64,000 nucleotides of DNA from an uncultured Bdellovibrionales bacterium (lineage in GTDB: Bacteria > Bdellovibrionota_C > UBA2361 > SZUA-149 > CALKYB01): contig CAZECN010000005.1 in the NCBI GenBank assembly GCA_964510575.1, forward strand, positions 18,518 to 82,517, read 5' to 3'. The first letter of the stretch is position 1. Each line of letters opens with the position of its first letter. The notes beneath the pieces were generated by a model, which saw only the letters and a program-made list of their open reading frames with translations, was not told where the DNA came from and did no database searches. Positions 8,735 through 23,524 of the stretch are shown piece by piece. A program made the translations under genes and the position numbers.

Positions 8735-11380
8735 ATGAACATTAGTAAAGGTAAAAAACTCTTTCAAACCCGAGATAATGAGGGTTTTGAGGCTGTGCTT
8801 CCTGAGGGAGCACAAGATTCAGCTATTTTGTGGTCTCAGCGTCAAGCTTTGTCTCCTGATGCCGTGCCAGGTTTTGAAAAAAGAATCTCTTCTTTAGCTA
8901 ACTCTCGCCTACCTATCGCGAAGGTTATTGGTTTTGGGGTTGATAGTAAGAGTGAAGGTTGGGCCTTGACCGAAAAAATTAGCGGCGATGACCTTTTTGG
9001 CTTGAAGGGAAGTGAAAGGGAACGAGCTTTCGTAAGAGCTATACAAATTATTGCCGCTTTACATGAACAGGGTGTCTTGCTCGGTGATATTTGTGATGAT
9101 TCTTTTGTTGTGAATGAGTCGGGAGAGGTTTTTCTTCAAAGCTATTTCGGTGGATTTGATTGTACTCAAGAAAAAACGGCAATGATTCCTCCAAAGGAAA
9201 CATTGTACTACTTAGCACCGGAGCAGCGTACAGGAGGAACACCTTCTTATAGTAATGATGTCTTTTCCTTAGGTGTTCTTGGCTATAAAATGTTTACTGG
9301 TAGCTATCCAGGAAAAGCAAATGGAGTGGAGGGTGCTGATAGCATCACTGCCAAAAGTGTAGCACCATCCAGTGTCGATCCTTCGATTCCTGAGTGGGTT
9401 GATGATGTCATTAGCGATTGTCTGATTTCTGGACAGGCTGGACGGTTCCGTGATGCCTCTAAATGTGTTGAAATTGTAAAGAGGGCTTTGCAGTCGGGTG
9501 AACGTCCTGGAAGTAAAGGGAAGTGGGCTCAGGTTTTGTCTGACAAGATTGCAGATGCTGAGCCCCAGATTGGTGAACCTGACTCCCAGGCTAATCAGGC
9601 GGTTCTTGTGGATCCCCCAAGTGCGGGAGCTGAAAATATATCAGAGAGATCTTCTACAACAACTACTGGCCCTAATAGTTCAGCAATCGCTCTTGGAAAT
9701 GGCCCTGACGAACTTCCTGAAGAAAGATCATTGGTTAAAATGACTGATCCTGAGTTCGCTTTGAAAAGTCGTCGAGTGGATAATGACTTGGTTAGAAAGT
9801 CTAAATCTGAAGTTGGTAGTCGACAGAAGCAAAAAGCAAAAGCTGAAAAAGATTTTTATGAAGACGAGATGCAAGGAAGACAGTCTTCTTTTAGTTTTTT
9901 TGACATTTGGCGCATAGTTTCAACCTTAATATGTCTTTCTATTGTAGCGGCATTGGGATTGTTTACTTATAGGTTTATTTACGGAGATCTCAGTACAACT
10001 AAACTAGGCCAGGGGCTGGAAATTGATGTTGAAGCTGCGCCTCCGGCATTAAAGCCGTCCATTAACGATCTAAAGTCAGCAGCGGTCTCTGTTGAGGTTA
10101 AAAAAGATGCTTTGAAAAGAATTGCCGACTTTGACGATCCAGTATCGCATAACGTTTTAGTTTCTGTAATTTTGGAATCTGAGGATCCAGAATTGAAGAA
10201 ATTGTCTCGCGAGTTAGTTATTGATCGTCTCTCCAGGGGAGGCTTAAGTCGTTCAGCTAATTTGTTGGAGAATTGGTTTGTCAATATGAACAAGAGCAAG
10301 CGAAATGTTGATCAACATTTGGTGAATGTCTTGCGTGTTTTTGATCAAACTATTCCATTAGAAGCAAGGCAGTCTCGCTTGAGAGGTCTTTATGAAGAAA
10401 TGCCAGAGTTTGGCCTTCAATTCGCGGCTGCGCTTGGATTAGATACTGGTGGAGATGAGTCTTTTACTCCTTTACTTAGAGCTTTTGTTAAAGAAAAGTT
10501 TGGTTATTCTGATCTTGAAGATAAGAGTGTTTATGCCATTATTCTGTCCGAAGAATCTCTATTGAATCAGTTTGAAGGGGATCTTAAGAGCTTTCTGAAA
10601 GAGCTATCCGCCAACGATTTGGCTTGGGGAATGCTTTACTTAGCGAGGCAGAATAGCCTCACCCTTAAAGACGTGGCCAAGGAAGTTGGAATTAGAGAGG
10701 TAGTACCAAGATTTCAATCTGAATTTGTGGAGATGCTTTCGAAGTTGGATCATTTTCCTTTAGAGAAAAATGTAAAACTAGCGCTGGTTCGAGGTGCTCG
10801 TGGCGAAACTAAGCTAGATGACGTGAATGTTATTGGTCGATGGTATGATCAAAATGCGGAGCGTGCTCTGTTAGTGATCTGTGCTATTTCGAAAGATAAG
10901 AGGGTCAAAGAGCATGCATTTTCTACTTTAGCTGGACGGACTTTGAGTGCCGAGCCTGCTCGAACTTTAGTTGGTTGGGTTAAGAGCAAATATTGGGCTA
11001 GAAGGTCGCGTTTGGCTACACCAGTAGCTATTTTGTCTCTTCAAGACGTTTCTACTGAGCAAGATTTGCAAACTGCGTTTGATCAGTTGGCCCCGTATTT
11101 TTCTGGAAATACAATTTTTGATACTTTTGATAAGATCGGCGACTCCGCTCTAACTTTACTAGCACTAAGGAGAGTAGGTGCATCATTGCCAAGCCCGGTT
11201 TTAATTGAGCTACTTTCTAACAAGAAAAAAGAGGTTCGAATGGAAGCTGTAAAATCCCTTAGTGGCAGAAACGATTTAGCTGTTCTTCACGCGATCACAA
11301 AAGCGCACAGGAAAGAGAAGGATCCAGATGTTTTAGCCGCTTTTGAGGAACATCACTGGAATACTAGGGATCGATCTTAG
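8735..11380 (+). CDS. Transmembrane Hanks-type Ser/Thr protein kinase-like protein with degenerate catalytic motifs (probable pseudokinase) and C-terminal HEAT/PBS-lyase-like repeats
   Basis: The N-terminal ~260 aa carry the kinase C-lobe signatures LAPEQ (APE motif) and DVFSLGVLGYKMFTG (subdomain IX). The catalytic loop reads LLGDICDDSF instead of HRDLKPxN, and the DFG position reads YFG. A single TM follows (IWRIVSTLICLSIVAALGLFTYRFIY), then ~470 aa with HEAT-like repeats (e.g. KKEVRMEAVKSLSGRNDLAVLHAI). Confidence 0.6.
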   Translation: MNISKGKKLFQTRDNEGFEAVLPEGAQDSAILWSQRQALSPDAVPGFEKRISSLANSRLPIAKVIGFGVDSKSEGWALTEKISGDDLFGLKGSERERAFVRAIQIIAALHEQGVLLGDICDDSFVVNESGEVFLQSYFGGFDCTQEKTAMIPPKETLYYLAPEQRTGGTPSYSNDVFSLGVLGYKMFTGSYPGKANGVEGADSITAKSVAPSSVDPSIPEWVDDVISDCLISGQAGRFRDASKCVEIVKRALQSGERPGSKGKWAQVLSDKIADAEPQIGEPDSQANQAVLVDPPSAGAENISERSSTTTTGPNSSAIALGNGPDELPEERSLVKMTDPEFALKSRRVDNDLVRKSKSEVGSRQKQKAKAEKDFYEDEMQGRQSSFSFFDIWRIVSTLICLSIVAALGLFTYRFIYGDLSTTKLGQGLEIDVEAAPPALKPSINDLKSAAVSVEVKKDALKRIADFDDPVSHNVLVSVILESEDPELKKLSRELVIDRLSRGGLSRSANLLENWFVNMNKSKRNVDQHLVNVLRVFDQTIPLEARQSRLRGLYEEMPEFGLQFAAALGLDTGGDESFTPLLRAFVKEKFGYSDLEDKSVYAIILSEESLLNQFEGDLKSFLKELSANDLAWGMLYLARQNSLTLKDVAKEVGIREVVPRFQSEFVEMLSKLDHFPLEKNVKLALVRGARGETKLDDVNVIGRWYDQNAERALLVICAISKDKRVKEHAFSTLAGRTLSAEPARTLVGWVKSKYWARRSRLATPVAILSLQDVSTEQDLQTAFDQLAPYFSGNTIFDTFDKIGDSALTLLALRRVGASLPSPVLIELLSNKKKEVRMEAVKSLSGRNDLAVLHAITKAHRKEKDPDVLAAFEEHHWNTRDRS

Positions 11381-11401
11381 TTAGCGATTGGAATATTCTT
11401 A

Positions 11402-12793
11402 ATGTTTGCTTTAGAAATTGATTTTCATGATGGCGTTAGTAGTCCGGAAGTTCTGCTAATTAGAAGGCCAATTGCCTTGGTTGGCACTAGTGAGTTTGCC
11501 CATGTTGTAATCGATGGTGCTGCGGCTAATCTCGCTGAACTAAGAATTTTTCGAGAGATAGAGGGAGGATTTTCTTGCCAAGTGAATTCTCGAGATCGGG
11601 GAGCTGAAAATTCTAGAAAAGATGAAAGTTTTGATAAGTTTGCTAGGTTGGAACTTGGCGAAGTGACGACTTCAGTCACTTCCCTAGACTATGATCTTGC
11701 TGTCAGGCCGGAGGAGTCACCGGATAGTGCCGCGCTGAGAATTGCTCAAGAGGCTCTAACCAGCAGAGCACCTAAGCTTCCAGCATTGGCTTTGCTGGGA
11801 GCAAAAACTGTCTTTGTTTCCATTCTGGCGAATACAGGGGTGGTATTGGGCCGTTCAAGGAAGAGTTTAATTCGTTTAGATGCGCCTGATGTCAGTGGTG
11901 AACATGCCAGGATGGGTTATGACAATAATAGCTTTTGGATTGAGGATCTAGGGAGTACCAATGGTACTTTTGTCGAAGGAGAAAGAATTTCTGGTAGAGT
12001 TAATTTTATCCCTGGGCAGAGAGTGAGGCTAGGGGGTGAAACTGTAATTGGAGGAGTCGAGAAAGCGCAGGATGTGGAGCTTTATCGGAATATTGAAGGT
12101 GAGGCCAAGCAGGATGACCCTCGAGGCAAGTATCCTTGTGTTGTATCAAATTCCGAACTTATTAAACCGGCTCGTATACCTCTGGTTTTAGGTAGAACTA
12201 TTTCGATGGGAAGAGATCCTTCTAATGATATCTGGGTTGGAGCATCGCACATTTCAAGGAACCATTGTTATGTAACTTTCGAGGACAGTGGAACAGTTAG
12301 TGTCAAGGACGAAAGTTCCAACGGAACGTTTTTAGGTGAATCCAAACTCAACAAGGGAGAGGCTACTGACATTGTCTCAGATAATTCCATCATCCATTTA
12401 GGCTCAGAACTTTGTATTAAAGTTTGTTTTGATAAAGCTAGTGAAGAAACTTTTCTTGAAGAGCACAAGCAAATTGAGCCAGAGTTTGTTAAGGAATCAG
12501 ATATTAATGCGATGGAATTAACATCACTATCTGCTAAAGCAGTCAGCCCTGCCACAGACGATCCTGAAAACAGGATTGAAGGCGATGGGGTTTTTGCAAA
12601 GTTAGCAAGGAAACGTTCTAGTGAGTCTAATCTTTTGAACCCTGTTTTAGATCCTAACCGAATGCAGTCAAAGCTTAGCACTCAATCTATTCAGAGAAAA
12701 AACTCTTCTCGCCTTATTACTTCCCTAGCTCTTGTCTTTTGCATATTAATATTGTTGGGCTGGATTGCTTATAATCTTTACAGAATAATATAG
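11402..12793 (+). CDS. Multi-FHA-domain protein with C-terminal membrane anchor (SctD/YscD/CdsD-like cytoplasmic part, no periplasmic domain)
   Basis: At least two FHA domains (VVLGRSRKSLIRLD...GEHARMGYDNNSFWIEDLGSTNGTFVEGERI and LVLGRTISMGRDPSNDIWVGASHISRNHCYVTFEDSGTVSVKDESSNGTFLG), plus a degenerate N-terminal FHA-like segment. One TM sits at the extreme C-terminus (LITSLALVFCILILLGWIAYNLY). Confidence 0.7.
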   Translation: MFALEIDFHDGVSSPEVLLIRRPIALVGTSEFAHVVIDGAAANLAELRIFREIEGGFSCQVNSRDRGAENSRKDESFDKFARLELGEVTTSVTSLDYDLAVRPEESPDSAALRIAQEALTSRAPKLPALALLGAKTVFVSILANTGVVLGRSRKSLIRLDAPDVSGEHARMGYDNNSFWIEDLGSTNGTFVEGERISGRVNFIPGQRVRLGGETVIGGVEKAQDVELYRNIEGEAKQDDPRGKYPCVVSNSELIKPARIPLVLGRTISMGRDPSNDIWVGASHISRNHCYVTFEDSGTVSVKDESSNGTFLGESKLNKGEATDIVSDNSIIHLGSELCIKVCFDKASEETFLEEHKQIEPEFVKESDINAMELTSLSAKAVSPATDDPENRIEGDGVFAKLARKRSSESNLLNPVLDPNRMQSKLSTQSIQRKNSSRLITSLALVFCILILLGWIAYNLYRII

Positions 12794-13020
12794 AGCAAGG
12801 CTGCCTTCTTTAAGTTAGATAAAGTGATTTTTAGGCTTTAAACAGCTAAATTTAGCTAGAATTTCCCTGATTCCTAAAGTTTTTTTAATAGAATTTATTT
12901 GATAACTCTTCACTCCCGATGCATCTAAAAGTAGGGGAAAGTTTACTAGCCGGATCGCCTTTAATCCTTTTTGTCTTTTTCGACAATGTAGCGTGATGAT
13001 TTAACCACTTTGGTGTTTTT

Positions 13021-14142
13021 ATGAGTAATGAAGATACAGAGCTGACATTTGTTCGTTGTCCTAGTTGTAGGAGCTTAATACCTGCGATCGCAAAGCGATG
13101 TCGAATGTGTGGTCATGCATTTTCAGAAGGTGAGACTACTCCGACTGAGGAATCGTCAGAAGATTCCTCTAAGTCTAGAATAAGACAGCGTTCTTCAACT
13201 AATTTTATTGGCATAAAGGCACCCGCAGATGAAGCGGAAGTTGAGAAAAAAGAAAATCATCCAATCGAGGATGATAATGAGGGTTTGGATACAAATAACC
13301 CCGCCAGTGTAGAAGTAGATAACGAATGGTCTAGGCCCAATACCTCGAATCAATTTCTTAAGAGTTTTAATAGTTCTGAGAAAGTTCAATCACCGGAGCC
13401 TGTAGAAAAGCAGGAGAGAGCAGAGCAGGTTTCTGCTTCGGCGTCTCCAAATATGGAGAACCAGGAGGATTCCGAGCCCAAGAGAAAGAGAAAGAGAAGA
13501 CGAAGAAAAAGAAAGAAACCTGAGACAGAAACTGTTGAGGTTAAGTCTGAAGTCGAAAGCTCGACCGATGTTCAAGAAACGGAGGTAGAAATGGAAGAAC
13601 CGAGAAATTCAAGAAGGTTTTCTGAGGAGACCTCAGAAAGAGACTATCATAGTGAAGAAAATGACGCGGAGTTACCTGAACAAAATGCGGAACCTGCCTC
13701 AAGACCTCAACGAAGAACCAAAAGAGAGAGAGCGCCAATGAATAGTAATTCTTCTGACCTAGTTGGCTGGTTAGTCAACTTTGAAACGCCCACTGGTCAG
13801 GGAACTGAGCTGCGAGCCGGTAGATTTTTCGTTAGTTCAGAGCAAGTTAAGCCTGATGACCTAGTGCTTAATGATTCAAGTATCTCAGTTCCTCATTGTA
13901 TTTTTAAAGCCACCAAGGAAGATGGATTTAAAGTTCAAGATTTGATGAGTGAAAATGGAACTTGGATAAAGAAGGCCGGAGAAAGTGACTATAAAGAGTT
14001 GGTTGAAGCTCAGCCTGTTGAGCATGGAGACCATCTTAGATTAGGTGATTTCGAGGTATTGGTTTGCTTGATTCCTAAAGATAAAAAGAAACGCTCATCC
14101 AAAGCTTCAACAAGCAAGACAGTAGACAAGGAAGACAAATAA
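13021..14142 (+). CDS. Zinc-ribbon / acidic-basic low-complexity / C-terminal FHA-domain protein
   Basis: N-terminal CPSC...CRMC zinc-ribbon; highly charged disordered middle (KRKRKRRRRKRKK, E-rich); C-terminal FHA-like domain (ELRAGRFFVSSEQV...CIFKATKEDGFKVQDLMSENGTWIK...GDHLRLGDFEV). Confidence 0.6.
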   Translation: MSNEDTELTFVRCPSCRSLIPAIAKRCRMCGHAFSEGETTPTEESSEDSSKSRIRQRSSTNFIGIKAPADEAEVEKKENHPIEDDNEGLDTNNPASVEVDNEWSRPNTSNQFLKSFNSSEKVQSPEPVEKQERAEQVSASASPNMENQEDSEPKRKRKRRRRKRKKPETETVEVKSEVESSTDVQETEVEMEEPRNSRRFSEETSERDYHSEENDAELPEQNAEPASRPQRRTKRERAPMNSNSSDLVGWLVNFETPTGQGTELRAGRFFVSSEQVKPDDLVLNDSSISVPHCIFKATKEDGFKVQDLMSENGTWIKKAGESDYKELVEAQPVEHGDHLRLGDFEVLVCLIPKDKKKRSSKASTSKTVDKEDK

Positions 14143-14414
14143 TAGAGCCGAATAGGCGCTTTATCTAAATTAATTTGTCTAACTTAATTCGCCAAGATCG
14201 GCATATAGCAGCAGTTTGAGCTTAATTATAGTTGGTTGCACCGTTGGTGGTGCTATTGTAGCCTTTCTCTCAAGACTTAGCACATTCGCGCTATTGCTCT
14301 TGTCTTTTTGCATACAATTTCAAGAGAATTACTTGTTTATAGCGCAAGGCAATGGCCAAGAACATGACTTGGTCAACTAGATTTCTAGAGTTGAATATTT
14401 TAGCAAAACCCACC

Positions 14415-15275
14415 ATGAAAGTTTACCTGTTACTTTTTCTAATATTGGCAGCAAGCTCAGGTTGTAAACAGAACACTGAGTTGTTGAGCAGCTTATCTTC
14501 TAGAGAGTCTATCGAGGTACTCGTTCGCTTAGGCGAGATAGGAATTGAAGTTGAAAGAGTTAAAACTGGTGGAGCTAATAGCTCTTATAAAATTCAGGTG
14601 GCCCAAAGTCAGCATGCTCAAGCTTTAAAAGCACTTCATCAACTGGGCTTACCTCGAGCAATAAAAGATAGTTTAGATTCAATTACTAAACCTGCAGGGC
14701 TTATTCCCAATCCAGCTAAGATCTCTTCTTTGAGACTAGATCATGCTCTAGGGTTGGAGGTTGAAAGGTTGCTTGTTGCTTTACCGGGAGTGACAGAAGC
14801 TAAGGTGGTTGTCCGCTCAAACTTGGGTAGCAGAGACCTTGGTGATAAAACAGGAGGATCCTCTGCTTCAGTTGTCCTTCGTTACCTTTCCCGGACGGGG
14901 AAGTTTTCCTTGTCAGATGAAAGAGTAAAAAAGCTGGTAGCTAAAGGTGTACCAGATTTGAATGAAGAGTCGGTTTTGGTTGAAACTAGCCAGGTTTTTT
15001 TGTCTTCTGGAGCAACAGGTATTGGGGTAAGCGGAGGAGGTGAGGCTAAGGCCTTAAAGTCAATTTGGCCCTTCGGTATTGAAATTGCTGATGATGAGTA
15101 TACCAAGGCTGTGTATATGCTAGCTGGCTCAGGTCTTCTTTTCATCTTTTTAGGTTTGATTCTTGGTTATTTGCTATCTTCTACCTCTGGTAGACTGTTG
15201 TCAGGGGGAAATAGTAGAGCGTTGAGTAATGACAGAAAGAACCTTGAAAGAGGTACAGGGAATTTTTTAAGATAG
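14415..15275 (+). CDS. sctJ: T3SS inner-membrane ring lipoprotein SctJ (YscJ/PrgK/EscJ family)
   Basis: Lipoprotein-type signal MKVYLLLFLILAASSGC like YscJ; ring-building motif region (IEVLVRLGEIGIEVERVK...LEVERLLVALPGVTEAKVVVRSN); C-terminal TM (YMLAGSGLLFIFLGLILGYLL). Its ~290 aa size fits SctJ rather than flagellar FliF. The six-frame ORF begins at 14352; start chosen at the M preceding the signal peptide. Confidence 0.7.
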   Translation: MKVYLLLFLILAASSGCKQNTELLSSLSSRESIEVLVRLGEIGIEVERVKTGGANSSYKIQVAQSQHAQALKALHQLGLPRAIKDSLDSITKPAGLIPNPAKISSLRLDHALGLEVERLLVALPGVTEAKVVVRSNLGSRDLGDKTGGSSASVVLRYLSRTGKFSLSDERVKKLVAKGVPDLNEESVLVETSQVFLSSGATGIGVSGGGEAKALKSIWPFGIEIADDEYTKAVYMLAGSGLLFIFLGLILGYLLSSTSGRLLSGGNSRALSNDRKNLERGTGNFLR

Positions 15276-15318
15276 CTAGGCTTAATAGCTATGAGAATTA
15301 TCAAATAGGTTAAAAAAT

Positions 15319-15546
15319 ATGCCAAACTTAAGTAAGTTTAGAGCCTTAACTAACCGTGAGCAGGCGGTGGTTGCGTTGGCTGTTTTGCTAGATGGCCACG
15401 ATTCTGTGGAGATGCTTGTAAGCGATAGGGATCGAGGAGTTGCTCTTTCTAGGGCGGCTGAGGATCTAGTTGTGCTATCGCCAGACTTGAGAATGCCCTT
15501 GATGGGAACTCTTCTGAGAAGGGCACTTGAAGAAATTGACACGTGA
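15319..15546 (+). CDS. Small helical hypothetical protein in T3SS gene string (function unknown)
   Basis: 75-aa ORF on the operon strand with protein-like composition. An antisense ORF (15282-15542) overlaps, so coding status is uncertain. Confidence 0.3.
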   Translation: MPNLSKFRALTNREQAVVALAVLLDGHDSVEMLVSDRDRGVALSRAAEDLVVLSPDLRMPLMGTLLRRALEEIDT

Positions 15547-15664
15547 TCCCTCGCATTGAATATGGTTTGTTTTTCTTTGGTGGCAGCATCTTACCTATAG
15601 GGCAGTTTTCAGTTTGTAGGGTAGGTTTTCTGGAGGTGAACTTTTCAAAGAGGTTTAAAGTATC

Positions 15665-16141
15665 TTGAGATCTAAGCAGAAATTAGAAGTAATACTTCGC
15701 TCTCTTGAGGTTGAAGAGAGAGGCGCTCTGGAAGAAAAACTTAGAATTGAAGAGATTGCAGATGCTCGGGTGAAGGGGTTGTCGGGCTTGGTCGAAGAAA
15801 GAACAGTTTTATATTCTAAGCTCGACGACCTTTCGCAGTCCCAGAAGCGGGCTTTGGTCGGGGGGAGTAAGGCTGTTAGTCCAGCTGAGATACAGGCTTT
15901 TAAGGGTAGAATAAACAAACAAATTGAAGAGTTGAAGGTTAAAATCGACAAAGCCGATGAGCAGTATAAATTAGCCCGAGAACGTCTGGAACTGGCTGAG
16001 AACGAGTTGTTAGAGGCTCGTATAGGCCGGAAAAAGGTCGAGAAACTTTTGGATTCCAAGAAAGCCCGAGAACAGGTAAAACAGGAGATGGTGGAGGAAC
16101 GGCTACTAGAAGAATATAGTAGCGGAAAAGTGCGCAATTAA
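15665..16141 (+). CDS. Coiled-coil T3SS accessory protein, SctO(FliJ)- or SctL(FliH)-like candidate
   Basis: 158 aa, almost entirely charged heptad-like coiled coil (EELKVKIDKADEQYKLARERLELAENELLEARIGRKKVEKLL). Position between sctJ and sctQ mirrors the sctL/sctO positions in injectisome operons. Apparent TTG start preceded by AAAGAGG. Confidence 0.4.
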   Translation: MRSKQKLEVILRSLEVEERGALEEKLRIEEIADARVKGLSGLVEERTVLYSKLDDLSQSQKRALVGGSKAVSPAEIQAFKGRINKQIEELKVKIDKADEQYKLARERLELAENELLEARIGRKKVEKLLDSKKAREQVKQEMVEERLLEEYSSGKVRN

Positions 16142-16155
16142 TCTTAGCTTTTATA

Positions 16156-17214
16156 ATGTCTACAGTCGGAAAATTAGTCGGAAAAGATGCGAGTCCAATA
16201 CCCTGGTCCCCCAAGGATTTGTTGCCGACTCTATCCTCTAATCAAATTCGATTTAGCAGGGGGTTTTTGCGGAGTGATGTTAGTGTATGGCTTGCGGACT
16301 TTGTAAAGTCTTGGCAATTGCTTCTACATTCTCTTGGCTTAAAAGTTGAACTAAGTTCAGTCAATAATCAATTTAATTTTCCTGAATCTCTGAGTCGAGT
16401 GATACCCATTGAATTGGATGACGAGACTGCAGTCATTGGAATGGATGATGAAAGTCAGGAGATAGTTTCATCTGTAGTGGCGAAAGGATCTGAGTCAACC
16501 GCTGTTGATGTTATTGTCGAATACTTTGAACGTCGAATGCTTAGTTGTGTTAGTCAGCATTGGTCTGGTCCGATGCCTCTTAAAGCTAGGTATCTAGCAG
16601 ATAGTGAATCTACAGCGGTGGATGTTGTTGGTACCATTTGCTTTGTTTTTACCGCAGGAGGTAAAGACTTTAAACTGTGGCTTGGTTTAGGGCCAAGGGC
16701 TGTTGAGAGAATAGACGGCCTATGGAGAAAACAACTTTTTGAAGAAAAAAGTAATTTGCCCGGTCCGAAACTGCCTCAATTATCTACTGTGGATATAGAC
16801 TTAGTTGAGTTGCTTGTTCCCCCTGCTCTTTTAATTGACTACATGAGGAGTGGTACCGTGGTGGAGTTAGACCTTCCGACAAGCAATAAGGTTAGAGTGA
16901 ACCTGAACGGAAATTTCTGGGCTTATGGGCAGCTGGGACAGTTTGAAGGTAATTTCGCGGTTACGCTTGAGGACTTTGAGGCTAAAGAAAAGTCAGAAAA
17001 CGATAGCTCTAGCACAACCAAAGTTAGTGTTCAGCTTGCGGTTGAAGAAATAGATCGTGAGGCTGTTTTAGAGTTCGGCCAGGAGCAGTCTATTCTTTCT
17101 ACTCAAGTTGCAGTTAACGATAGAGCCAGTCTCATTATTAGTGGAGAAAGAGTTGCCTCTGCTATAATTGGCGAGTTGGATGGTAAGTTTGCTTTGACTG
17201 TGTTGCCGAAATGA
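16156..17214 (+). CDS. sctQ: T3SS cytoplasmic sorting platform/C-ring protein SctQ (FliN/YscQ SpoA domain)
   Basis: C-terminal SpoA domain: GTVVELDLPTSNKVRVNLNGNFWAYGQLGQFEGNFAVTLEDF, and a second SpoA-like segment DRASLIISGERVASAIIGELDGKFALTV. 352 aa. Stop overlaps the sctR start (ATGA). Confidence 0.7.
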   Translation: MSTVGKLVGKDASPIPWSPKDLLPTLSSNQIRFSRGFLRSDVSVWLADFVKSWQLLLHSLGLKVELSSVNNQFNFPESLSRVIPIELDDETAVIGMDDESQEIVSSVVAKGSESTAVDVIVEYFERRMLSCVSQHWSGPMPLKARYLADSESTAVDVVGTICFVFTAGGKDFKLWLGLGPRAVERIDGLWRKQLFEEKSNLPGPKLPQLSTVDIDLVELLVPPALLIDYMRSGTVVELDLPTSNKVRVNLNGNFWAYGQLGQFEGNFAVTLEDFEAKEKSENDSSSTTKVSVQLAVEEIDREAVLEFGQEQSILSTQVAVNDRASLIISGERVASAIIGELDGKFALTVLPK

Positions 17215-17888
17215 CAGTGTCTGAAATAATTGTTGGACTAGGGTATGATTTTCTTCCCTTAGTAAGCATAGGTTTCTTTGTTATTCTATTTAGCAGTTAC
17301 GTCAAAATATCTACAGTTCTATCTATTTTAAGATCAGGACTAGGGGCTTTTAGTATACCGTCTGCCATGGTTACTGGTTCTCTCGCTTTGGTCTTGAGCT
17401 TTTTTGTTATGTATCCGTACATTAATGAGGCTGCTTCTTCTATAGACAGGGTGGTAAGTTCCTCTGGATCGGTTAATTCTAGTGTTAGGGTTAAGGCTCT
17501 AGGAGAAGCTGGTAAGTCTTGGAAGAAGTTTTTGTTGAAGCATAGTGATCCGGAAGTGATTAGTGAACTTGCTACAATCGCCAATAAGATTGACGAATCG
17601 GCTGAGACTAAAGTAGCCGATAGCCTTGATACTAAGGAGCTTAGAGATTGGAGAATTTTGGCGCCTGCCTTTTATCTCTCTGAGTTAAGAGAGGCTTTCG
17701 CAATCGGATTGAGTCTCTTTTTGCCTTTTTTAGTTGTAGATCTATGCGTAGCTCATATTTTGGTGGCTTTAGGAGTGAATAAGGTTGATCCTTCTATGGT
17801 CTCTTTGCCCCTAAAACTCTTGCTTTTTGTTATGTTAGACGGATGGGCGTTGATCGCAGGAAATCTTCTATCGAGTTATGGAGGTTGA
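17211..17888 (+). CDS. sctR: T3SS export apparatus protein SctR (FliP family)
   Basis: FliP/SctR-like TM topology and conserved blocks (SIPSAMVTGSLALVLSFFVMYPY...AFAIGLSLFLPFLVVDLCVAHILVALGV...LPLKLLLFVMLDGWALIAGNLLSSY). Confidence 0.85.
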   Translation: MTVSEIIVGLGYDFLPLVSIGFFVILFSSYVKISTVLSILRSGLGAFSIPSAMVTGSLALVLSFFVMYPYINEAASSIDRVVSSSGSVNSSVRVKALGEAGKSWKKFLLKHSDPEVISELATIANKIDESAETKVADSLDTKELRDWRILAPAFYLSELREAFAIGLSLFLPFLVVDLCVAHILVALGVNKVDPSMVSLPLKLLLFVMLDGWALIAGNLLSSYGG

Positions 17889-18158
17889 ATGGACTTAAGC
17901 CTTGTAGTTGGAGCTTTGTCTGTTGTGGTCAATTTGACCATATGGGTATTCGCTGCTGCCCTGGCTGGAGGAGTTGTTTCTGGGATTATTAGAGTAGTTA
18001 CAGGAATGGAGGAGGAGATACTTAGTATTTTTTTTCGAGCCCTAGCTGTTTTTTTTCTTCTTTATATTTTTTCAGGTCCTGGATGGGAGGTCGTCTTGGA
18101 ATATACGGAGAGAATTTGGGGAGAGAAGAGTACCTATTCTTTCTCGACGGGTAACTGA
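17889..18158 (+). CDS. sctS: T3SS export apparatus protein SctS (FliQ family)
   Basis: 89-aa two-TM protein (LVVGALSVVVNLTIWVFAAALAGGVVSGIIRVVTGMEEEILSIFFRALAVFFLLYIF) typical of FliQ/SctS. Starts 1 nt after sctR. Confidence 0.8.
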   Translation: MDLSLVVGALSVVVNLTIWVFAAALAGGVVSGIIRVVTGMEEEILSIFFRALAVFFLLYIFSGPGWEVVLEYTERIWGEKSTYSFSTGN

Positions 18159-18167
18159 GTCTACAAA

Positions 18168-18887
18168 GTGAATAGCTTAATAGTCGCTGAAATACTTACA
18201 TTTTCTATCACAGCTTTTTCCTTGGGTTTTGGTTTTATGCCTAAATTCTCAAGGGCATCGTTTTTTGTAATTCTCTGTTGGCTGACTTTCCCTGCTGTTA
18301 TGGCCTCCTCATTGGCCTTGATTAGTGAACCTAAAAGCTTGGTTTTTTCAGGTAATTTTTCTGGATTGAGTAAGGGTTTTTTCTCCGGAGCATTGGCTGG
18401 CTTTATGGTTAGTGCTAGCGCTTGGGCTTCAATTATTTTTGCGGGTTGGGTCAACGCTGTTGTTTTCCCGAAAGATATCAAGGAGACAATTCTCTTGAGA
18501 GGAGATGATTGTCGAACAAGTTTATTCACCTTTTTGGGACTTCTTTTCTGCTTTTCTTTTTTTCAAAGTGACGCAGGTACTTCTATTGTTGTGGCTATGT
18601 TTGATTTATTGGAGAGCTCTAAAGGACAAGATCATCAGTTGTTCTTTAACCAAGGAATGTCGGTCATATTCTACCTATCTATATTGCTTTCTTTTCCTAT
18701 ATTTTTAGCTAGCTTGGTTGTGGATATCCTAATTTTTTTTCTTGAAAGGTTAGCTGGATTAGCGGTGGGTGAGGGCATATTCGGCGCGTTTCGCCTTCCA
18801 GTCATTTTGCTGTGTTTGGCTGTTTTTGTTCAATTAGCCCTTCAGGGTTTTGTCTCTGATGGATTTCATATTCTCGATTTTACATAG
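18168..18887 (+). CDS. sctT: T3SS export apparatus protein SctT (FliR family)
   Basis: 239-aa polytopic membrane protein of FliR/SctT size and hydropathy, in the canonical R-S-T-U position; GTG start. Confidence 0.7.
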   Translation: MNSLIVAEILTFSITAFSLGFGFMPKFSRASFFVILCWLTFPAVMASSLALISEPKSLVFSGNFSGLSKGFFSGALAGFMVSASAWASIIFAGWVNAVVFPKDIKETILLRGDDCRTSLFTFLGLLFCFSFFQSDAGTSIVVAMFDLLESSKGQDHQLFFNQGMSVIFYLSILLSFPIFLASLVVDILIFFLERLAGLAVGEGIFGAFRLPVILLCLAVFVQLALQGFVSDGFHILDFT

Positions 18888-18900
18888 GAGCTCCCGGTAA

Positions 18901-19647
18901 GTGTCTGAAAAACGTTATCCAATTTCCGATTTAAAAAGAGAGAAGCTTCGTAAGGCAGGAGTTATTGCCTTGGGTAGAGAGCTAAGTGCTTTCGGGAGTG
19001 TTGTTTCCTTGGGATTGGTTTGTGGAGTTTTGTTGAGTAGTGGTTTGGTAGAGAGTGTTATAGAAATTTGGTCTGCGCTTGACCATGATGGTGTCTCGGT
19101 AGCTGTCGTTCTGCAAAAAAGCTTTTTATCAGCGACCAAAGTACTTTTCACATGCTTAACCATAGCTAGTTTTATTTATATTCTTGGGCACTTATTACAA
19201 AGCGGCTTTCTCTTCCAGCCAAGACTTCTGTTCTCAGGAGTCGCTGAGCGCCTTGGGTTTGGACGTCTTTTTAGCTTTAGCTTTACTGAAGGCCTATTTC
19301 TTTTGATTGCCTCTATCGTTTGGGCTGGAGTTAGCTATTTGACGGTAAATTTATTGCTGTATGAACTGAGTGAAATCAAACCAGATAGTTATTTTCAATT
19401 GGATCCCGTGGTATCCAAAGAAGTTTTAGCCGAACGTTTCGATTCTTTGATTGGACAGATTTTCCCGCTTGTATTTGGTGTTGTGGTTCTCGCGAGCTTT
19501 TTGTTTGGTGTCATTATTTTTTTGGTGAGGAAGATTGCTTTTGATGCCAAGCACATGATGACCAGGCAGGAGGTCGAGCAGGAGGCTAAGGAGTATGAAG
19601 TGGATCAAAACATGAAAAGAGCCCAGTATGAGCGGCGCAATTCATGA
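18901..19647 (+). CDS. sctU: T3SS export switch protein SctU (FlhB/YscU family), membrane domain only; C-terminal autocleaving NPTH cytoplasmic domain absent
   Basis: N-terminus (EKRYPISDLKREKLRKAGVIALGRELSAFG) matches FlhB/SctU; 4 TMs; ends ...MMTRQEVEQEAKEYEVDQNMKRAQYERRNS, equivalent to the FlhB linker MSKQEVKDE...KGRIRQ, then a stop. Only 248 aa versus the usual ~350. No NPTH-containing ORF in any frame downstream. Confidence 0.75.
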   Translation: MSEKRYPISDLKREKLRKAGVIALGRELSAFGSVVSLGLVCGVLLSSGLVESVIEIWSALDHDGVSVAVVLQKSFLSATKVLFTCLTIASFIYILGHLLQSGFLFQPRLLFSGVAERLGFGRLFSFSFTEGLFLLIASIVWAGVSYLTVNLLLYELSEIKPDSYFQLDPVVSKEVLAERFDSLIGQIFPLVFGVVVLASFLFGVIIFLVRKIAFDAKHMMTRQEVEQEAKEYEVDQNMKRAQYERRNS

Positions 19648-19758
19648 ACTAGATGGTATTGAAGAAAAGGCCACTTTTTACTGGACTATTATAGTGTTAG
19701 GTTATGGCCTTGAGGATAGCTCAATTTTTGGCAATTTAGACTTAATTAAATAGGTCTT

Positions 19759-20265
19759 ATGGTGGATGGTAAAGATAAAATTGAATCTAAGCAGACCTTG
19801 CTAACGGGACGTAAGCGATCTGTAAAAGTTTCTAATAAGAGTGAAACCCATCGACCTGAATCATTGGTCAAATCAGCTCCCTCGGAAGAATCTCAAGTCG
19901 ATAATAATGAGTTAGCTCGGTCTGAATCTCGTGAGGTGGTTGAGAAAGCCCCTCAATCTGCTCCACCTGCTGAAAGTAAAGCTTCGGCGGAGCCTGATCT
20001 AGCGGTTCCGAGTGCAGAAACTAGTTTCAAACCATTAGAGTTTTCAAAGGGTCAACAAGTTCGGGAGTATTCTTCGGCTAGCCCTCTTTCCATCTTATTG
20101 CCAAGAATTGGAGATTTGCGGGCACTTTCTCAGAATGAGGCTTTTTTAAATAATGCAAGGGAGAGTTTGAAGGATAGTTCAGCTAGTCGGGATAGAAATC
20201 CAATTACGGAAAGGTCGATGATTCAACAAGTCTTAGATTGGCTATCTATGGGGGAGCGCCAGTAG
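19759..20265 (+). CDS. Hypothetical Ser/Ala/Glu-rich, probably disordered protein (possible T3SS-associated substrate or regulator)
   Basis: 168-aa ORF on the operon strand between sctU and the TPR chaperone-like gene; low complexity, no recognisable domain. Confidence 0.4.
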   Translation: MVDGKDKIESKQTLLTGRKRSVKVSNKSETHRPESLVKSAPSEESQVDNNELARSESREVVEKAPQSAPPAESKASAEPDLAVPSAETSFKPLEFSKGQQVREYSSASPLSILLPRIGDLRALSQNEAFLNNARESLKDSSASRDRNPITERSMIQQVLDWLSMGERQ

Positions 20266-20277
20266 CTACTGTATCAA

Positions 20278-20673
20278 ATGAATGTTTACCCTCCAGAACT
20301 TTTAAAATCGATGTACGAACTAGGTCGAATGTATTTTGAAATGGGGTATTTTGCTCCTGCTGAAAAAATATTTCAAGGACTAGTCGCTGTAGATAAAGGG
20401 GAGACTCCAGCTCGGGTAGGCTTAGGTCTGGTTAAGATTGAGAGAGGTTTTTATCAAGAAGCAGCGATGAATTTTAGAAGTGCGATTCAAAAAGGACAAT
20501 ACCAGGTGCAGGCTAAAATAGGGATGGCCTTTTCTTTTATTGCCCAGAATGAGTTGTCTAGAGCCAGATCGATGCTATCTCAGATTGAAAATGACCATGG
20601 CGATAAGATCATGGAGGATCAAGGTATTCGAATTCTTTTTGAAGCTGCCTATATCCGATGCGAAAAGGACTAG
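20278..20673 (+). CDS. Small TPR-like protein, resembling class II T3SS chaperones (SycD/LcrH/CesD type)
   Basis: 131 aa, three TPR-like helical repeats (MYELGRMYFEMGYFAPAEKIFQGLVAVD...ARVGLGLVKIERGFYQEAAMNFRSAIQ...). Size and position at the end of the T3SS gene string fit a translocator chaperone. Confidence 0.4.
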   Translation: MNVYPPELLKSMYELGRMYFEMGYFAPAEKIFQGLVAVDKGETPARVGLGLVKIERGFYQEAAMNFRSAIQKGQYQVQAKIGMAFSFIAQNELSRARSMLSQIENDHGDKIMEDQGIRILFEAAYIRCEKD

Positions 20674-20674
20674 A

Positions 20675-20733
20675 TATATACTGCGCCTCATTGAAATTTC
20701 GGTTTTGCTGGATTAAGCATAGGCGCAGTATAA
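20675..20733. repeat. Hairpin repeat with TATAC termini (TATACTGCGCCT - 31 nt - AGGCGCAGTATA), immediately after the stop of the TPR gene
   Basis: Perfect 12-bp inverted arms. The left-arm motif TA(T/C)TGCGCCT recurs just after stop codons at 35476 and 50385. Confidence 0.6.
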
Positions 20734-20927: not shown

Positions 20928-21130
20928 ATATACTCAACCCGACATGATCAAAAAAGGCCGAAATTTAAAGTAGGTTGAGTATATACCCCGTCTATTTTAA
21001 ATTCTGGCTTTTTCTGTGCCTGTAGTAAAGGGGTATAAACAGTGCGTAGCACTGCCAGACAACAGGTATACTGAAACCTCATTTAAGCTATAGCCAAACA
21101 CGATATTTAAGGTGGTTTCAGTATCTATTT
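20928..21130. repeat. Composite intergenic hairpin-repeat element (units with ATATACTCAACC/GGTTGAGTATAT, TATACCCC/GGGGTATA and GTATACTGAAACC/GGTTTCAGTAT arms); copy A
   Basis: 20975-21130 aligns almost base-for-base with the reverse complement of 40073-40380, apart from a 165-bp indel in the other copy. Multiple nested inverted repeats visible in the sequence. Confidence 0.7.
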
Positions 21131-21461
21131 AGTCTTTGTTCTCTTCATCCGACTCGTCTAGTAGAGAGGAATCTACAGCCATTTTTACTGCGGACTCTAC
21201 GGTTTTTCGTTGTTCTTCTGGTAAACCGTCTGGACCAAACATTTTTTCTGCTTCTTCATTGATTAAGGTGTGGAGCGTGTCGCGGTCCGCCGTGGTCATT
21301 TTTCGGCCGGCCTTACTTCCACCAGAAGTTTTAGCTTTTTTAGCTGTTTTTTCCACCTGCTGAGAGGAGCCAACCTTGCTGGTTTTGACCTCTTTGCTTC
21401 CTTCAACAGCTCCAGTACCTGAACCAATCTTGGGTCCTTTACCACCAATTTTCTTTACCAT
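21129..21461 (-). CDS. Lys/Gly-rich small hypothetical protein co-transcribed downstream of a sigma factor (anti-sigma factor candidate, unproven)
   Basis: 110 aa, overlaps the upstream sigma-factor stop by 7 nt on the minus strand. Disordered N-terminus, helical acidic C-terminus. Confidence 0.4.
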   Translation of the reverse strand: MVKKIGGKGPKIGSGTGAVEGSKEVKTSKVGSSQQVEKTAKKAKTSGGSKAGRKMTTADRDTLHTLINEEAEKMFGPDGLPEEQRKTVESAVKMAVDSSLLDESDEENKD

Positions 21462-22333
21462 GTTGCACCTAGCTGTTCGTAGTTAGAAAGGGAAATTAAT
21501 AGAAAAATAAAACCAGTTAATACAGCTGACGATCCACTTTGTTGTGAAGCAAATTTATTGAAAGGAGGTTCCGATTTGGATTTTTTCATTTTCATCGCAA
21601 TAGGTCTGAGCCCAGGTCGAATTTTTAACTTCTTTCTAGGCGCCTTGCCTTCGGAGACCATATAAAAAACATAAGAAAGAATTTCTTTGTGTTCTCGAAC
21701 TATAACTAACTCATCTAAGGACCATTCTTCCGCTAATTTTCTCATTGAAAGGTCTTTCCAATAGATAGCATATAGGATTTCTTGATGTACTGGTTCAAGG
21801 GCTGATAGTCGCTCGAGCATTTCGTTATACTCAAGAGCTATCGCAGGATTCTCTCGTCCACTTTGTTCAAATGCAGCGATGACGCTGGCACTCGAGAGCA
21901 TTTGTCTGATGGTGTTTCTAAGAGATGCACCTTCAGTATCTTCTTCATTTTTGACAAAACCAGACCGAAGTTCTGGAAAAACTTGCATTAACCTAGCAGA
22001 GACCTCTCTAGCAGTTTGTTCTTCTGGAGTTGCTGATCCAACCCCTTTTTGCCAACTTTTAGATTTTCTTGCTTCCTCAGTCGAGGCTTCGTGGATTCTT
22101 CTTCTAGCATATCCGCGAAAGGGAACTCCCATTCCAGGGTCGTAACGCTGTGCGCAAAATAGTAGACCTTCGTAAGCTCCGCCATCTAAGCCGTCTAATT
22201 GATAGTCCAGATTCCAGGCTCTTGCGACTGACTTTGCTATTGAAGTAGCCCAACCAAGATGGTCGTCCACTAGGAGCTGTATAAGATCCGAGCTACCGGC
22301 TGGAAAATTTTTGTATTCTTCTACTTTGTTCAT
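21455..22333 (-). CDS. Sigma-70 family RNA polymerase sigma factor (group 3, FliA/WhiG-like)
   Basis: Region 2 (YEGLLFCAQRYDPGMGVPFRGYARRRIHEA) and region 4 HTH (EILYAIYWKDLSMRKLAEEWSLDELVIVREHKE) recognisable; 292 aa. Confidence 0.65.
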   Translation of the reverse strand: MNKVEEYKNFPAGSSDLIQLLVDDHLGWATSIAKSVARAWNLDYQLDGLDGGAYEGLLFCAQRYDPGMGVPFRGYARRRIHEASTEEARKSKSWQKGVGSATPEEQTAREVSARLMQVFPELRSGFVKNEEDTEGASLRNTIRQMLSSASVIAAFEQSGRENPAIALEYNEMLERLSALEPVHQEILYAIYWKDLSMRKLAEEWSLDELVIVREHKEILSYVFYMVSEGKAPRKKLKIRPGLRPIAMKMKKSKSEPPFNKFASQQSGSSAVLTGFIFLLISLSNYEQLGATW

Positions 22334-22744
22334 TTAATCAAAAGCCTTAGCCTAAGTAATGATATTATTTTTGGTCAGTCTAAGGTTTAGATGTCTCTAC
22401 TAATATAGTCGATCCTTAAAAACAGCCTATTAGTTGTAGGGTAAGGTTAGAAGCACAGTTTCTCTTCAAATTCTCCCTATGATCAGCTTATCTATAAGTT
22501 ACTGTAATTACTATTTTAAATAAGAAGCGCCCTAGTATAGAAACGATCTATATCATACAGATTTAATCAGGTATAGGCAGTTTCTACTAGGAAAAGCTTA
22601 ATTATATCAGAGGATTATAAACTAATTAGAAGTGATTTTGGCTCAGAGCTGATTAGTGATTGTTAGTCGGACAATCAGGCAGTTTTGCCGGTTTGTTTAG
22701 CAGTAGAGAATTTAAATTAGTCGGTTTTTAGGGGTATCAATCAA

Positions 22745-23524
22745 ATGTCTACTAAGTTGAAAACAGTTTCCACGACCAGAAAGAAACCATCAGTGAAAAA
22801 GCAGAAGTATATTGATGAGTTGGTCATTAACCATAGAGAAAACGGTCGAAAGCTTGCCAGAAGTTTCTTAAGAAGGTGGCGAGTCAGAATGCCTCTTGAA
22901 GAAGTAGATAGCATTGTCGACCTTACGCTTTGCGAGGCAGCCGGACGCTACGATAAGACAAAAGGTGCTTCATTTATGACCTTTTTCTATTACCATTTAA
23001 GAGGTCAAATGGTCAGGGCTGTCGAAGGAGCTGCACAGCAAAGCTCGATGATGGTTAATTTTTCCCAAACTTCAGATCTTGATGTCACAGAATGGGCTCA
23101 ACAGGATTACGCCTTGAATTCTATGGTGATTTCCGAATCGATTTGCCCTGAAGGTTCTGGGGCTAGCACGCCTGAGCACGCAGCAATTAGAAAACAAAGT
23201 ATTGAAAAGTGTGTAAGAGCTTGTGACCAACTTGATGATTTAGAAAAAGAAATTATTTCCCGTTCTTATTCTAAAGACGAAGCCTTAGTAGATATTGCTA
23301 AGTCGCTTGGTTACAGCAGATGTCACATCTCTAGAGTAAAGAAAAGAGCCATGGTTCGGCTCAGAGAGATTCTGGAAGTCCAGGGTCTTGAAGGGACAGG
23401 AGCTCCACTTACTCTTTCTGAGACAGTGTCTGCTGAGAGGACGCCTAGGAAACGAAGAAGTCGAGTCCGCTCTAATAGAGTTTCAAAAACAAAAAAACCA
23501 GCAGCTATCAAAAGAGTTGCTTAA
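22745..23524 (+). CDS. Sigma-70 family RNA polymerase sigma factor (group 3/FliA-like), divergent from the previous one
   Basis: Region 2 (DLTLCEAAGRYDKTKGASFMTFFYYHLRGQM) and region 4 (EALVDIAKSLGYSRCHISRVKKRAMVRLRE); 259 aa. Confidence 0.65.
   Translation: MSTKLKTVSTTRKKPSVKKQKYIDELVINHRENGRKLARSFLRRWRVRMPLEEVDSIVDLTLCEAAGRYDKTKGASFMTFFYYHLRGQMVRAVEGAAQQSSMMVNFSQTSDLDVTEWAQQDYALNSMVISESICPEGSGASTPEHAAIRKQSIEKCVRACDQLDDLEKEIISRSYSKDEALVDIAKSLGYSRCHISRVKKRAMVRLREILEVQGLEGTGAPLTLSETVSAERTPRKRRSRVRSNRVSKTKKPAAIKRVA

Follow-up and report, generated by a model that had tools for sequence, protein, structure and literature searches.

The closest described relatives of the system reported here come from myxobacteria. 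In Myxococcus, the Tad-like Kil machine recruits a T3SS (type III secretion system) known as T3SS*, the two co-localise at contacts with prey, and both a joint complex and a role of the pilus resembling that of a type II secretion system (T2SS) have been proposed (PMC12075869, PMC12428579). T3SS* of Myxococcus xanthus (mxan_2434-2464) is a non-flagellar core without secretin, needle or translocon (PMC12075869, PMC3459982). The Kil loci are rich in FHA proteins, and type VI secretion has served as the model for suggesting that they are under phosphorylation control triggered on contact (PMC8460266). Kil and T3SS* are reported to occur together only in the Cystobacterineae (PMC10849154, PMC12428579). 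Here we describe a 64-kb stretch of DNA (the window) from an uncultured Bdellovibrionales bacterium, lying on a 105.7-kb metagenome scaffold, in which a reduced type III export core, a Tad machine and signalling genes are joined in one conserved 23-gene cluster. We consider it reasonably probable that these genes encode an export gate for a single class of substrate, driven by the proton motive force, that works with a Kil-like Tad machine under threonine-phosphorylation control.

The locus shares with Kil/T3SS* a non-flagellar core without secretin, needle or translocon, a tie to a Tad-like machine, an abundance of FHA proteins and a predatory 'delta-proteobacterial' lineage (PMC12075869, PMC3459982, PMC8460266). 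It is more reduced, because T3SS*, whose genes lie apart from the kil loci, retains both a full sorting platform and the SctN ATPase, and no SctN, SctL or SctK was found at the locus or on split loci here. A first-pass annotation of the window had offered, as one of two readings, a reduced export gate comparable to needle-less T3SS*. The KilF ATPase of Myxococcus carries an FHA domain whereas the Tad ATPase CpaF here does not, and here, in contrast to Myxococcus, sctV directly follows tadC, SctU lacks its C-terminal domain, and the cluster includes genes for a pseudokinase-HEAT protein and for a kinase/PP2C pair. The 'short' non-flagellar locus of the Myxococcales (Abby and Rocha 2012) is likewise reduced, conserved and vertically inherited, without a large inner ring, secretin or needle, but it has an ATPase and an inner-rod protein, neither of which was found here. 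Both myxobacterial loci of Abby and Rocha, like T3SS*, keep the ATPase and are separate from kil. Exchange of parts between Tad and type III systems has a precedent in Rhizobiales T3SSs with a Tad-type secretin, RhcC2 (PMC3459982). There, one Tad-like secretin has been added to a complete injectisome, whereas here whole inner-membrane modules are joined and there is no local secretin. We found no earlier description of a joined Tad-SctV cluster in the open-access literature.

Cluster architecture and the type III core

Open reading frames (ORFs) were assigned by Pfam and NCBIfam scans, the Pfam scan covering ORFs of at least 100 aa at positions 1-61116 except the ORF at 32157-32519; three ORFs at 61133-63882 lay outside it. 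We also examined the 8.2 kb of the scaffold upstream of the window and 18 related loci (about 380 kb in all), collected by context look-ups and by a genome scan with the pseudokinase as a specific marker, and annotated locally with phmmer and hmmsearch. All genes at 159-20673 lie on the plus strand with short intergenic gaps, and together with the upstream sequence they form a one-strand cluster of 23 genes and about 25 kb that runs from a PP2C gene through a TPR gene. Its order is PP2C phosphatase, FHA protein, Hanks-type Ser/Thr kinase, TadZ, Flp, RcpC, CpaF, TadB, TadC and SctV; then pseudokinase-HEAT protein, tail-anchored FHA protein, FHA protein, SctJ, 75-aa protein, SctO and SctQ; and finally SctR, SctS, SctT, SctU (membrane domain only), a small protein and a TPR chaperone. 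The upstream 8.2 kb holds a hybrid histidine kinase, a 136-aa protein, the PP2C, FHA and Ser/Thr kinase genes and the beginning of tadZ; it contains no type III genes. The genes that the first-pass annotation had flagged are the type III half of a larger Tad/T3SS/signalling cluster. A promoter and terminator scan of positions 1-20000 gave the same counts as shuffled sequence. The type III genes and their small companions are as follows.

6476-8680, plus strand: SctV, subunit of the export-gate nonamer, full length including the cytoplasmic domain (FHIPEP 553 bits)
14352-15275, plus strand: SctJ, a 307-aa YscJ-type ring lipoprotein (PF01514 39.7 bits, TIGR02544 99.7 bits) with lipobox LAASSGC and a C-terminal membrane helix
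15319-15546, plus strand: conserved helical 75-aa protein in the canonical sctK-sctL-sctN slot
15665-16141, plus strand: SctO/FliJ stalk (PF02050 36.7 bits, cut-off 28.4)
16156-17214, plus strand: SctQ with a SPOA/FliN-type C-terminal domain (FliMN_C 45 bits)
17211-17888, plus strand: SctR (FliP 170 bits)
17889-18158, plus strand: SctS (Bac_export_3 25.7 bits, cut-off 25)
18168-18887, plus strand: SctT, very divergent, with five predicted membrane helices, assigned by synteny and an orthologue profile
18901-19647, plus strand: SctU membrane domain, 248 aa (Bac_export_2 profile positions 2-235 of 335)
19759-20265, plus strand: 168-aa protein, disordered in its N-terminal part, whose C-terminal module (about 70 aa) is conserved
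20278-20673, plus strand: cytoplasmic TPR protein, best NCBIfam match LcrH_SycD (35 bits, under the cut-off), then CdsG and SctY

The core scores slightly nearer to non-flagellar than to flagellar models. SctV reached 511 bits with hrcV and 482 bits with FlhA, each under its equivalog cut-off, and its top PDB match was YscV/LcrD (7alw); SctR reached 178.7 bits with the non-flagellar subfamily model (cut-off 179) and 145.7 bits with the flagellar one; and SctJ is of the YscJ type, with a true start that is probably at 14415 (MKVYLLLF...). Since the scores fall under every equivalog cut-off, the core appears to branch deeply. SctO was modelled by AlphaFold2 (AF2) as a two-helix hairpin (predicted local distance difference test score, pLDDT, 92), with YscO (4mh6) and Chlamydia CT670 (3k29) as its top full-length PDB matches. 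SctT was harder to place. Searches with one to three sequences found no match in Pfam, NCBIfam or the PDB, and comparison with the orthologue in related locus L020 gave an E value of 0.25 by BLASTP and a probability of 6% by hhalign; the only PDB chains matched by a profile of seven positional orthologues were those of FliR/SpaR (E 0.002-0.08), and PF01311 was hit by four of these orthologues.

All the genes that the first-pass annotation had named as present were confirmed. Pfam and NCBIfam matches identify SctJ, SctQ, SctR, SctS, SctU and the TPR protein as it had named them, and the seven-orthologue profile and synteny do the same for SctT. SctV, which it had placed at 14352-20673, is present but lies upstream of that interval, and the coiled-coil protein that it had called SctL- or SctO-like has the PF02050 signature and YscO/CT670 fold of SctO and is not SctL.

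SctU was correctly described as truncated. The protein ends about 25 residues past its fourth transmembrane helix, the autocleaving NPTH switch domain is missing, and several in-frame stops lie beyond. Seven orthologues have 248-269 aa and end just past a conserved HxMTRxExExE linker. We then surveyed 1.84 billion representative sequences (50% identity) by an exhaustive HMMER search, which found 77 relatives, 76 of them retrieved; a word-index search had given one match. Seventy of the 76 are shorter than 330 aa (two are fragments), with a median of 257 aa, so that 68 are full-length short forms, and the other six have 344-365 aa, four of these with an NP(T/E)H motif. This distribution indicates that the SctU truncation is an ancient, family-wide trait. 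The 168-aa gene downstream was considered as a detached SctU C-terminal domain in the same frame and ruled out by the intervening stops and the lack of an NPTH motif and of similarity to Bac_export_2.

The C-terminal module of the 168-aa protein is kept in L006, L015, L020 and L022 and has no family match. The adjacent TPR protein has full-length PDB matches that include PcrH, SycD and AcrH, and resembles T3SS class-II chaperones. The pair looks like a chaperone and its client, and the 168-aa protein is a candidate substrate, or a candidate partner of the TPR protein. In L024, a single 231-aa gene (12608-13303) stands in place of the two; it may be a fusion of the small protein and the TPR protein, which would support a direct partnership.

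Parts missing from the locus

We searched the locus for the remaining parts of a T3SS. None of the scanned ORFs has an F1-type ATPase (ATP-synt_ab), secretin, needle, rod, ruler or gatekeeper domain, and none matches translocators, the SctP ruler or the SctW gatekeeper in Pfam. SctN, SctL, SctK, SctC, the needle, the rod and a periplasmic SctD ring are absent from the window, the upstream 8.2 kb and the 18 related loci. No flagellar structural gene (FliF, the FliG/FliM switch, rod, hook or FliH/FliI) occurs in the 64 kb.

To gauge the sensitivity of these searches we used as a control L026, a canonical injectisome locus that encodes the nearest SctR not belonging to the family (44% identity). 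It is arranged as SctC, SctD, two small ORFs (71 and 144 aa), SctJ, a 213-aa protein without family match in the SctK slot, SctL, SctN, SctO, SctQ, SctR, SctS, SctT, SctU (345 aa) and SctV. With the L026 proteins we searched every stop-to-stop frame of the window and of the 18 family loci (381 kb) by phmmer --max. SctJ, SctQ, SctR, SctS, SctT, SctU and SctV all recovered their counterparts, whereas no match at E<=1 was obtained with SctN, SctC, SctD, SctL, the putative SctK or the small proteins. The cluster shares with canonical injectisomes, such as L026 or the Ysc family, a YscJ-type lipoprotein SctJ and a collinear run from sctJ to sctO-sctQ-sctR-sctS-sctT-sctU; it differs in that SctC and SctD are absent here, SctU has 248 rather than 345 aa, and sctV has moved beside tadC. 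Where canonical clusters have sctK, sctL and sctN, between sctJ and sctO, the window has the single 75-aa gene.

At the level of the locus, the type III part keeps only components that lie in or under the inner membrane, and it has neither the ATPase complex (SctN, SctL and SctK) nor the parts to build or measure a needle. The first-pass annotation had listed SctN, SctC, SctD, SctF, SctI, SctP, SctW and translocators as missing from the window, and the Pfam scan and the L026 queries agree. It had suggested two explanations. The first, that the missing parts lie just outside the window, did not hold, as none was found in the 8.2 kb upstream, in the 43 kb downstream of the cluster or on split loci. 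The second, a reduced export gate with other partners, is supported by conserved gene order, by selection, by the family-wide short SctU and by Tad genes contiguous with sctV.

The 75-aa protein is well conserved (73% mean column identity among six orthologues). It has no match in Pfam, NCBIfam or the PDB, and no needle or rod signature. In a single-sequence AF2 model (pLDDT 70.7) it forms four main helices, for which Foldseek gave no match. We considered whether it could be an adaptor like the N-terminal part of FliG; a PDB profile search gave only noise and Foldseek no matching fold, leaving the idea unsupported. A metagenome scan with this protein as a marker returned only four short contigs.

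The Tad half of the cluster

The Tad genes precede sctV without interruption.

1-935, plus strand: 3' part of tadZ/cpaE, a ParA/MinD-like localisation ATPase whose gene begins 321 nt before the window
1248-1433, plus strand: Flp prepilin, 61 aa, processing site G/ASMLEY (PF04964 matches the identical gene of L001 and L002)
1807-2739, plus strand: RcpC/CpaB, inner-membrane-anchored periplasmic Tad component with an N-terminal membrane helix (PF16976 77 bits; TIGR03177 128 bits, cut-off 71)
2822-4351, plus strand: CpaF/TadA secretion ATPase (T2SSE 113 bits)
4380-5399, plus strand: TadB platform protein (T2SSF)
5401-6324, plus strand: TadC platform protein (T2SSF)

The full tadZ gene is seen in L001 (7873-9129), where its 418-aa product matches AAA_31 and CpaE/MinD models. 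Orthologues score about 770 bits for TadZ and about 800 bits for CpaF, even those of distant relatives. CpaF matches only T2SSE and AAA models, and its N-terminal 130 residues are of low complexity. It carries the sole GxxGxGK[ST] Walker A motif in the six frames of the whole window, which upholds the earlier statement that it is the only secretion ATPase in the block. The Tad/Flp core set is complete for Flp, CpaF, TadB/TadC, TadZ and RcpC/CpaB. We did not find a prepilin peptidase (TadV/CpaA), an RcpA/CpaC secretin or TadE/F minor pilins in the window, the upstream 8.2 kb or the related loci. As Flp carries a G/A processing site, essential Tad parts must have their genes at other places in the genome.

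Conservation and selection

Relatives of SctV with 36-50% identity were found in metagenome-assembled genomes labelled by their submitters as Bdellovibrionales, Bdellovibrionota, Oligoflexia or 'Deltaproteobacteria'. The full cluster order recurs in L005/L015 (GCA_046328905.1), L007, L012, L024 and L025, and partial order in L008/L011, L010, L013, L014 and L023. In nine independent contigs, SctV comes directly after TadC. Gene content and order are kept down to about 36-45% SctV identity, and reading frames are intact in more than ten genomes. SctR proteins of Myxococcota (Pendulispora and Labilithrix) score 125-126 bits, under the break of about 170 bits that sets the family apart.

In loci with a split cluster, the breaks always fall between the same modules. 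One module consists of the Tad genes, SctV and the pseudokinase (L013 and L014); a second of SctJ, the 75-aa protein, SctO, SctQ, SctR, SctS and SctT (L023, beside arginase); and a third of SctR, SctS, SctT, SctU, the small protein and the TPR protein, followed by three regulator genes and a PMT_2 glycosyltransferase (L020-L022). None of the sampled pieces from these three kinds of split locus carries sctN, sctC, sctD or sctF. In L013 (5306-17207) and L014 (9920-22258), genes for thioredoxin, an S9 peptidase, trigger factor, ClpP, ClpX and Lon come after the first module. These genomes may encode SctJ, SctQ, SctR, SctS, SctT and SctU at other loci, or their SctV may be an orphan in the service of the Tad machine.

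Between the window and L009 (95% identical), the ratio of non-synonymous to synonymous substitution rates (dN/dS) is 0.04 for SctV, 0.06 for the pseudokinase and 0.12 for an FHA protein. Between the window and L006, where the proportion of synonymous differences (pS) is saturated at about 0.8, the proportion of non-synonymous differences (pN) is 0.10-0.37 for every type III gene, the same range as for the neighbouring RNase PH and Ham1 genes. These values indicate that the cluster genes are under purifying selection and that the cluster is not a relic. There is no sign of recent transfer, because the GC content is the same as that of the flanks. Evolutionary rates are very uneven along the cluster: CpaF and its L006 orthologue share one 90%-identity cluster, while SctU is 51% and SctT 57-58% identical between the window and L006.

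Signalling proteins of the cluster

The upstream Hanks-type kinase has its G-loop, HRDLKPEN, DFG and SPE motifs all present, and is by these motifs an active kinase. The kinase, the PP2C phosphatase and an FHA protein have membrane anchors, and the cluster encodes four FHA proteins. Three further signalling proteins lie between SctV and SctJ.

8735-11380, plus strand: pseudokinase-HEAT protein of 881 aa, with a kinase-like domain, one membrane helix (about residues 394-412) and a HEAT-repeat domain at the C terminus (about 470 aa)
11402-12793, plus strand: tail-anchored multi-FHA protein of 463 aa (FHA 109 bits in two stretches; Yop-YscD_cpl 51.7 bits)
13021-14142, plus strand: zinc-ribbon and FHA protein (UPF0547, FHA and Yop-YscD_cpl matches) with a long disordered middle part, conserved in position

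The 881-aa protein is classed as a pseudokinase because the G-loop, HRD and DFG motifs are all absent; its Pkinase match (30.7 bits, cut-off 31.7) covers the C-lobe alone, and the C-terminal domain matches HEAT_2. The pseudokinase gene follows sctV in each family locus that reaches beyond sctV, and the HEAT domain is periplasmic by predicted topology. A cytoplasmic domain, a single membrane helix and a large periplasmic domain are also the topology of SctD. This SctD-like topology and the tightest linkage to sctV make the protein a candidate replacement for the missing outer ring of the inner membrane, or a candidate connector to RcpC. The tail-anchored FHA gene occupies the sctD position of canonical clusters, and in all complete orthologues its product has a membrane helix inside the final 25 residues and no periplasmic domain.

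The cluster contains the gene set of a secretion-system threonine-phosphorylation pathway, with genes for the Hanks kinase, the PP2C phosphatase and the FHA proteins all within it. A Hanks kinase, a PP2C phosphatase and FHA proteins also lie within the H1 type VI secretion cluster of Pseudomonas aeruginosa (PpkA/PppA/Fha1), whose pathway has been cited as a model of firing in response to contact (PMC8460266). That is a different machine, and the predicted pathway described here has four FHA proteins and an extra pseudokinase.

Proposed mechanism and alternatives

In the mechanism that we propose, the gate would move one class of substrate across the inner membrane by the proton motive force, with SctO acting on SctV and so maintaining the efficiency of the gate. 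The coupling of FliJ to FlhA in Salmonella is the basis for giving SctO this part in an ATPase-less state. With no needle or rod to assemble first, a substrate switch would be unnecessary, which could explain the joint loss of the SctU C-terminal domain, the ruler and the ATPase. Type III export is known to run without its ATPase once the proton motive force is raised (PMC4230889). Loss of the ATPase fits a single-substrate gate because the activity of FliI is required mainly for the substrate switch (PMC12802181). If our proposal is correct, the gate would share with the FliH/FliI bypass mutants of Salmonella the ability to export on the proton motive force alone (PMC4230889). The bypass strains carry laboratory mutations in a complete flagellum, whereas the ATPase-less state here would, on locus-level evidence, be natural and conserved. 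The Tad machine, with its CpaF-driven Flp pilus and RcpC, would be the route or vehicle past the inner membrane, as has been proposed for Kil/T3SS* of Myxococcus. Threonine phosphorylation would gate assembly or firing upon contact, with the membrane-anchored FHA proteins and the pseudokinase as targets or intermediaries of the kinase and PP2C. Given the lineage, the probable use is contact-dependent attack on prey. We infer the role in predation, the proton-motive-force drive, the phospho-control, the substrates and the physical coupling of the two halves.

Several observations weigh against this mechanism. SctO and SctQ, the classic partners of the ATPase complex, are retained under selection, so that an ATPase could still dock, be it a remote SctN or the flagellar FliH/FliI. 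The absence of sctN and sctL applies to the loci searched, and the Tad half is itself incomplete at the locus, without prepilin peptidase, RcpA secretin and minor pilins. Essential Tad genes certainly lie elsewhere, and the same could hold for a type III ATPase. Finally, adjacency of the Tad and type III genes means co-inheritance and probably co-expression, and does not imply physical coupling.

A bolder version, which we put forward only tentatively and think somewhat unlikely, is that the two halves form one chimeric envelope machine. The type III gate (SctRSTUV with SctJ, SctQ and SctO), devoid of ATPase and switch, would be docked to the Tad motor or share a basal platform with it, CpaF would be the sole motor ATPase, the pseudokinase-HEAT and tail-anchored FHA proteins would replace SctD as phospho-regulated connectors, and cargo would be handed to the Flp pilus for delivery to prey. 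If true, it would be a natural hybrid of two unrelated secretion superfamilies and a genetic 'Rosetta stone' for the proposed Kil/T3SS* complex.

Alternatively, the two machines may be co-regulated and mechanically independent, the type III core being powered by a remote SctN/SctL or by flagellar FliH/FliI and exporting its own cargo to the periplasm without the pilus. The conservation of SctO and SctQ under selection fits such a case, as does the splitting of the cluster between modules, and a FlgO gene near L020 and L022 suggests that these lineages are flagellated. We nevertheless regard this arrangement as unlikely, because SctV is still found beside TadC where all other T3SS genes have left the locus (L013 and L014), and because genes for FHA proteins, kinase and pseudokinase are interleaved between both halves. 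Moreover, we know of no case in which a flagellar ATPase serves a second T3SS.

It is also conceivable that we have sampled one piece of an ordinary multi-locus injectisome, as in Chlamydia, with SctN, SctL, SctK, SctC, SctD, SctF, SctI and SctP encoded elsewhere and the Tad genes mere neighbours. Non-flagellar T3SS genes can be scattered over several loci (PMC3459982), prepilin peptidase and secretin, essential for the Tad half, are encoded elsewhere, and SctO and SctQ have been retained. This explanation is improbable in view of the SctU switch domain, which is missing in every orthologue and in some 68 representatives. A system that builds a needle needs the SctU switch, which depends on SctU/FlhB autocleavage. 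It would also have to account for a protein in the SctD position without a periplasmic domain in any orthologue, for three kinds of split locus with no missing part on any of them, and for a TadC-SctV adjacency retained in nine contigs.

A further alternative concerns three regulator genes that trail the SctRSTU-TPR module not only in the window but also in L006 (11859-14230), L020 (13450-15942), L022 (13518-16027) and L024 (13383-15724).

21129-23524, both strands: regulator trio, with 110-aa and 292-aa proteins on the minus strand and a 259-aa sigma factor placed divergently on the plus strand

The 110-aa protein (21129-21461) is half disordered, and the start of its gene overlaps the end of the 292-aa gene. 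The 292-aa protein is sigma-like with a hydrophobic C-terminal tail, and its top PDB matches are FliA (E 2e-4); the 259-aa sigma factor has regions 2 and 4 and a weak similarity to FliA/WhiG. Together the three genes may form a sigma/anti-sigma circuit dedicated to the system, whose logic is perhaps like that of FlgM. A direct identification of the 110-aa protein as FlgM found no support in Pfam, NCBIfam or the PDB.

The core could on this basis be a regulatory checkpoint that exports an anti-sigma-like protein, for instance the 110-aa protein, and so frees the FliA-like sigma factors once the Tad machine engages its target, on the model of FlgM export through the flagellar gate. The recurrent position of the trio and the FliA resemblance of both sigma proteins speak for a checkpoint. 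We find it very improbable, as the 110-aa protein is without a FlgM signature, the sigma assignments fall far under the family cut-offs and the export itself is putative; a checkpoint would in any case be compatible with effector export. That the cluster is in decay, left over from an injectisome or a flagellar export apparatus and now without function, as the many missing core genes and the very divergent SctT, SctU and SctS (scoring under family cut-offs) might suggest, can hardly be credited given intact frames in more than ten genomes, dN/dS of 0.04-0.12, pN far under pS and a conserved point of SctU truncation.

Significance

The cluster provides genetic support for the idea that Kil and T3SS* form a single machine, so far proposed only for Myxococcus, and extends the pairing of Tad and T3SS beyond the Myxococcota to a second predatory phylum. 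That sctV stays by tadC even when the rest of the cluster disperses is gene-neighbourhood evidence that makes the idea of a single machine testable. Three proteins are candidate connectors: the pseudokinase-HEAT protein, the tail-anchored FHA protein and the 75-aa protein. Should SctN prove absent from the whole genome, the cluster would encode a natural type III apparatus that has neither the ATPase nor the SctU switch domain, of which we found no other. Such an apparatus would be a living counterpart of the Salmonella bypass mutants, and would test whether the ATPase and the SctU C-terminal domain serve switching or translocation. In models of T3SS evolution, the cluster adds a further reduced form to the series from the flagellum through the Myxo type to the injectisome.

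Downstream genes and minor features

The 43 kb downstream of the cluster hold regulators and housekeeping genes. A PMT_2 membrane glycosyltransferase (ArnT- or protein-mannosyltransferase-like, 23861-25546) comes after the regulator trio, as it does in L006, L020 and L024; as it is kept even where the T3SS and Tad modules are split, it may belong to the system, for example in glycosylation of pilin or cargo. From about 23.8 kb on there are genes for RNase PH, Ham1, tRNA-Pro, BipA, arginase, SerA, MetH and lipopolysaccharide core synthesis. The sole Rfam match is tRNA-Pro (TGG) at 27948-28024. It overlaps the mechanical GTG start of a DUF1232/DnaJ ORF (27991-28599), whose real start is probably downstream, as the L006 orthologue has 160 aa. 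A 1317-aa protein on the minus strand (51660-55613) has only faint matches to NHL and sortilin-type beta-propeller repeats.

We also noted a family of hairpins with arms TATACT-N5 and N5'-AGTATA and loops of about 34-37 nt. Three of them (20677-20732, 20929-20983 and 21067-21125) lie within the 456-bp gap after the TPR gene, and a fourth (40074-40132) follows an ORF that ends at 40072. By their appearance they are repetitive extragenic palindromic (REP)-like elements or terminators.

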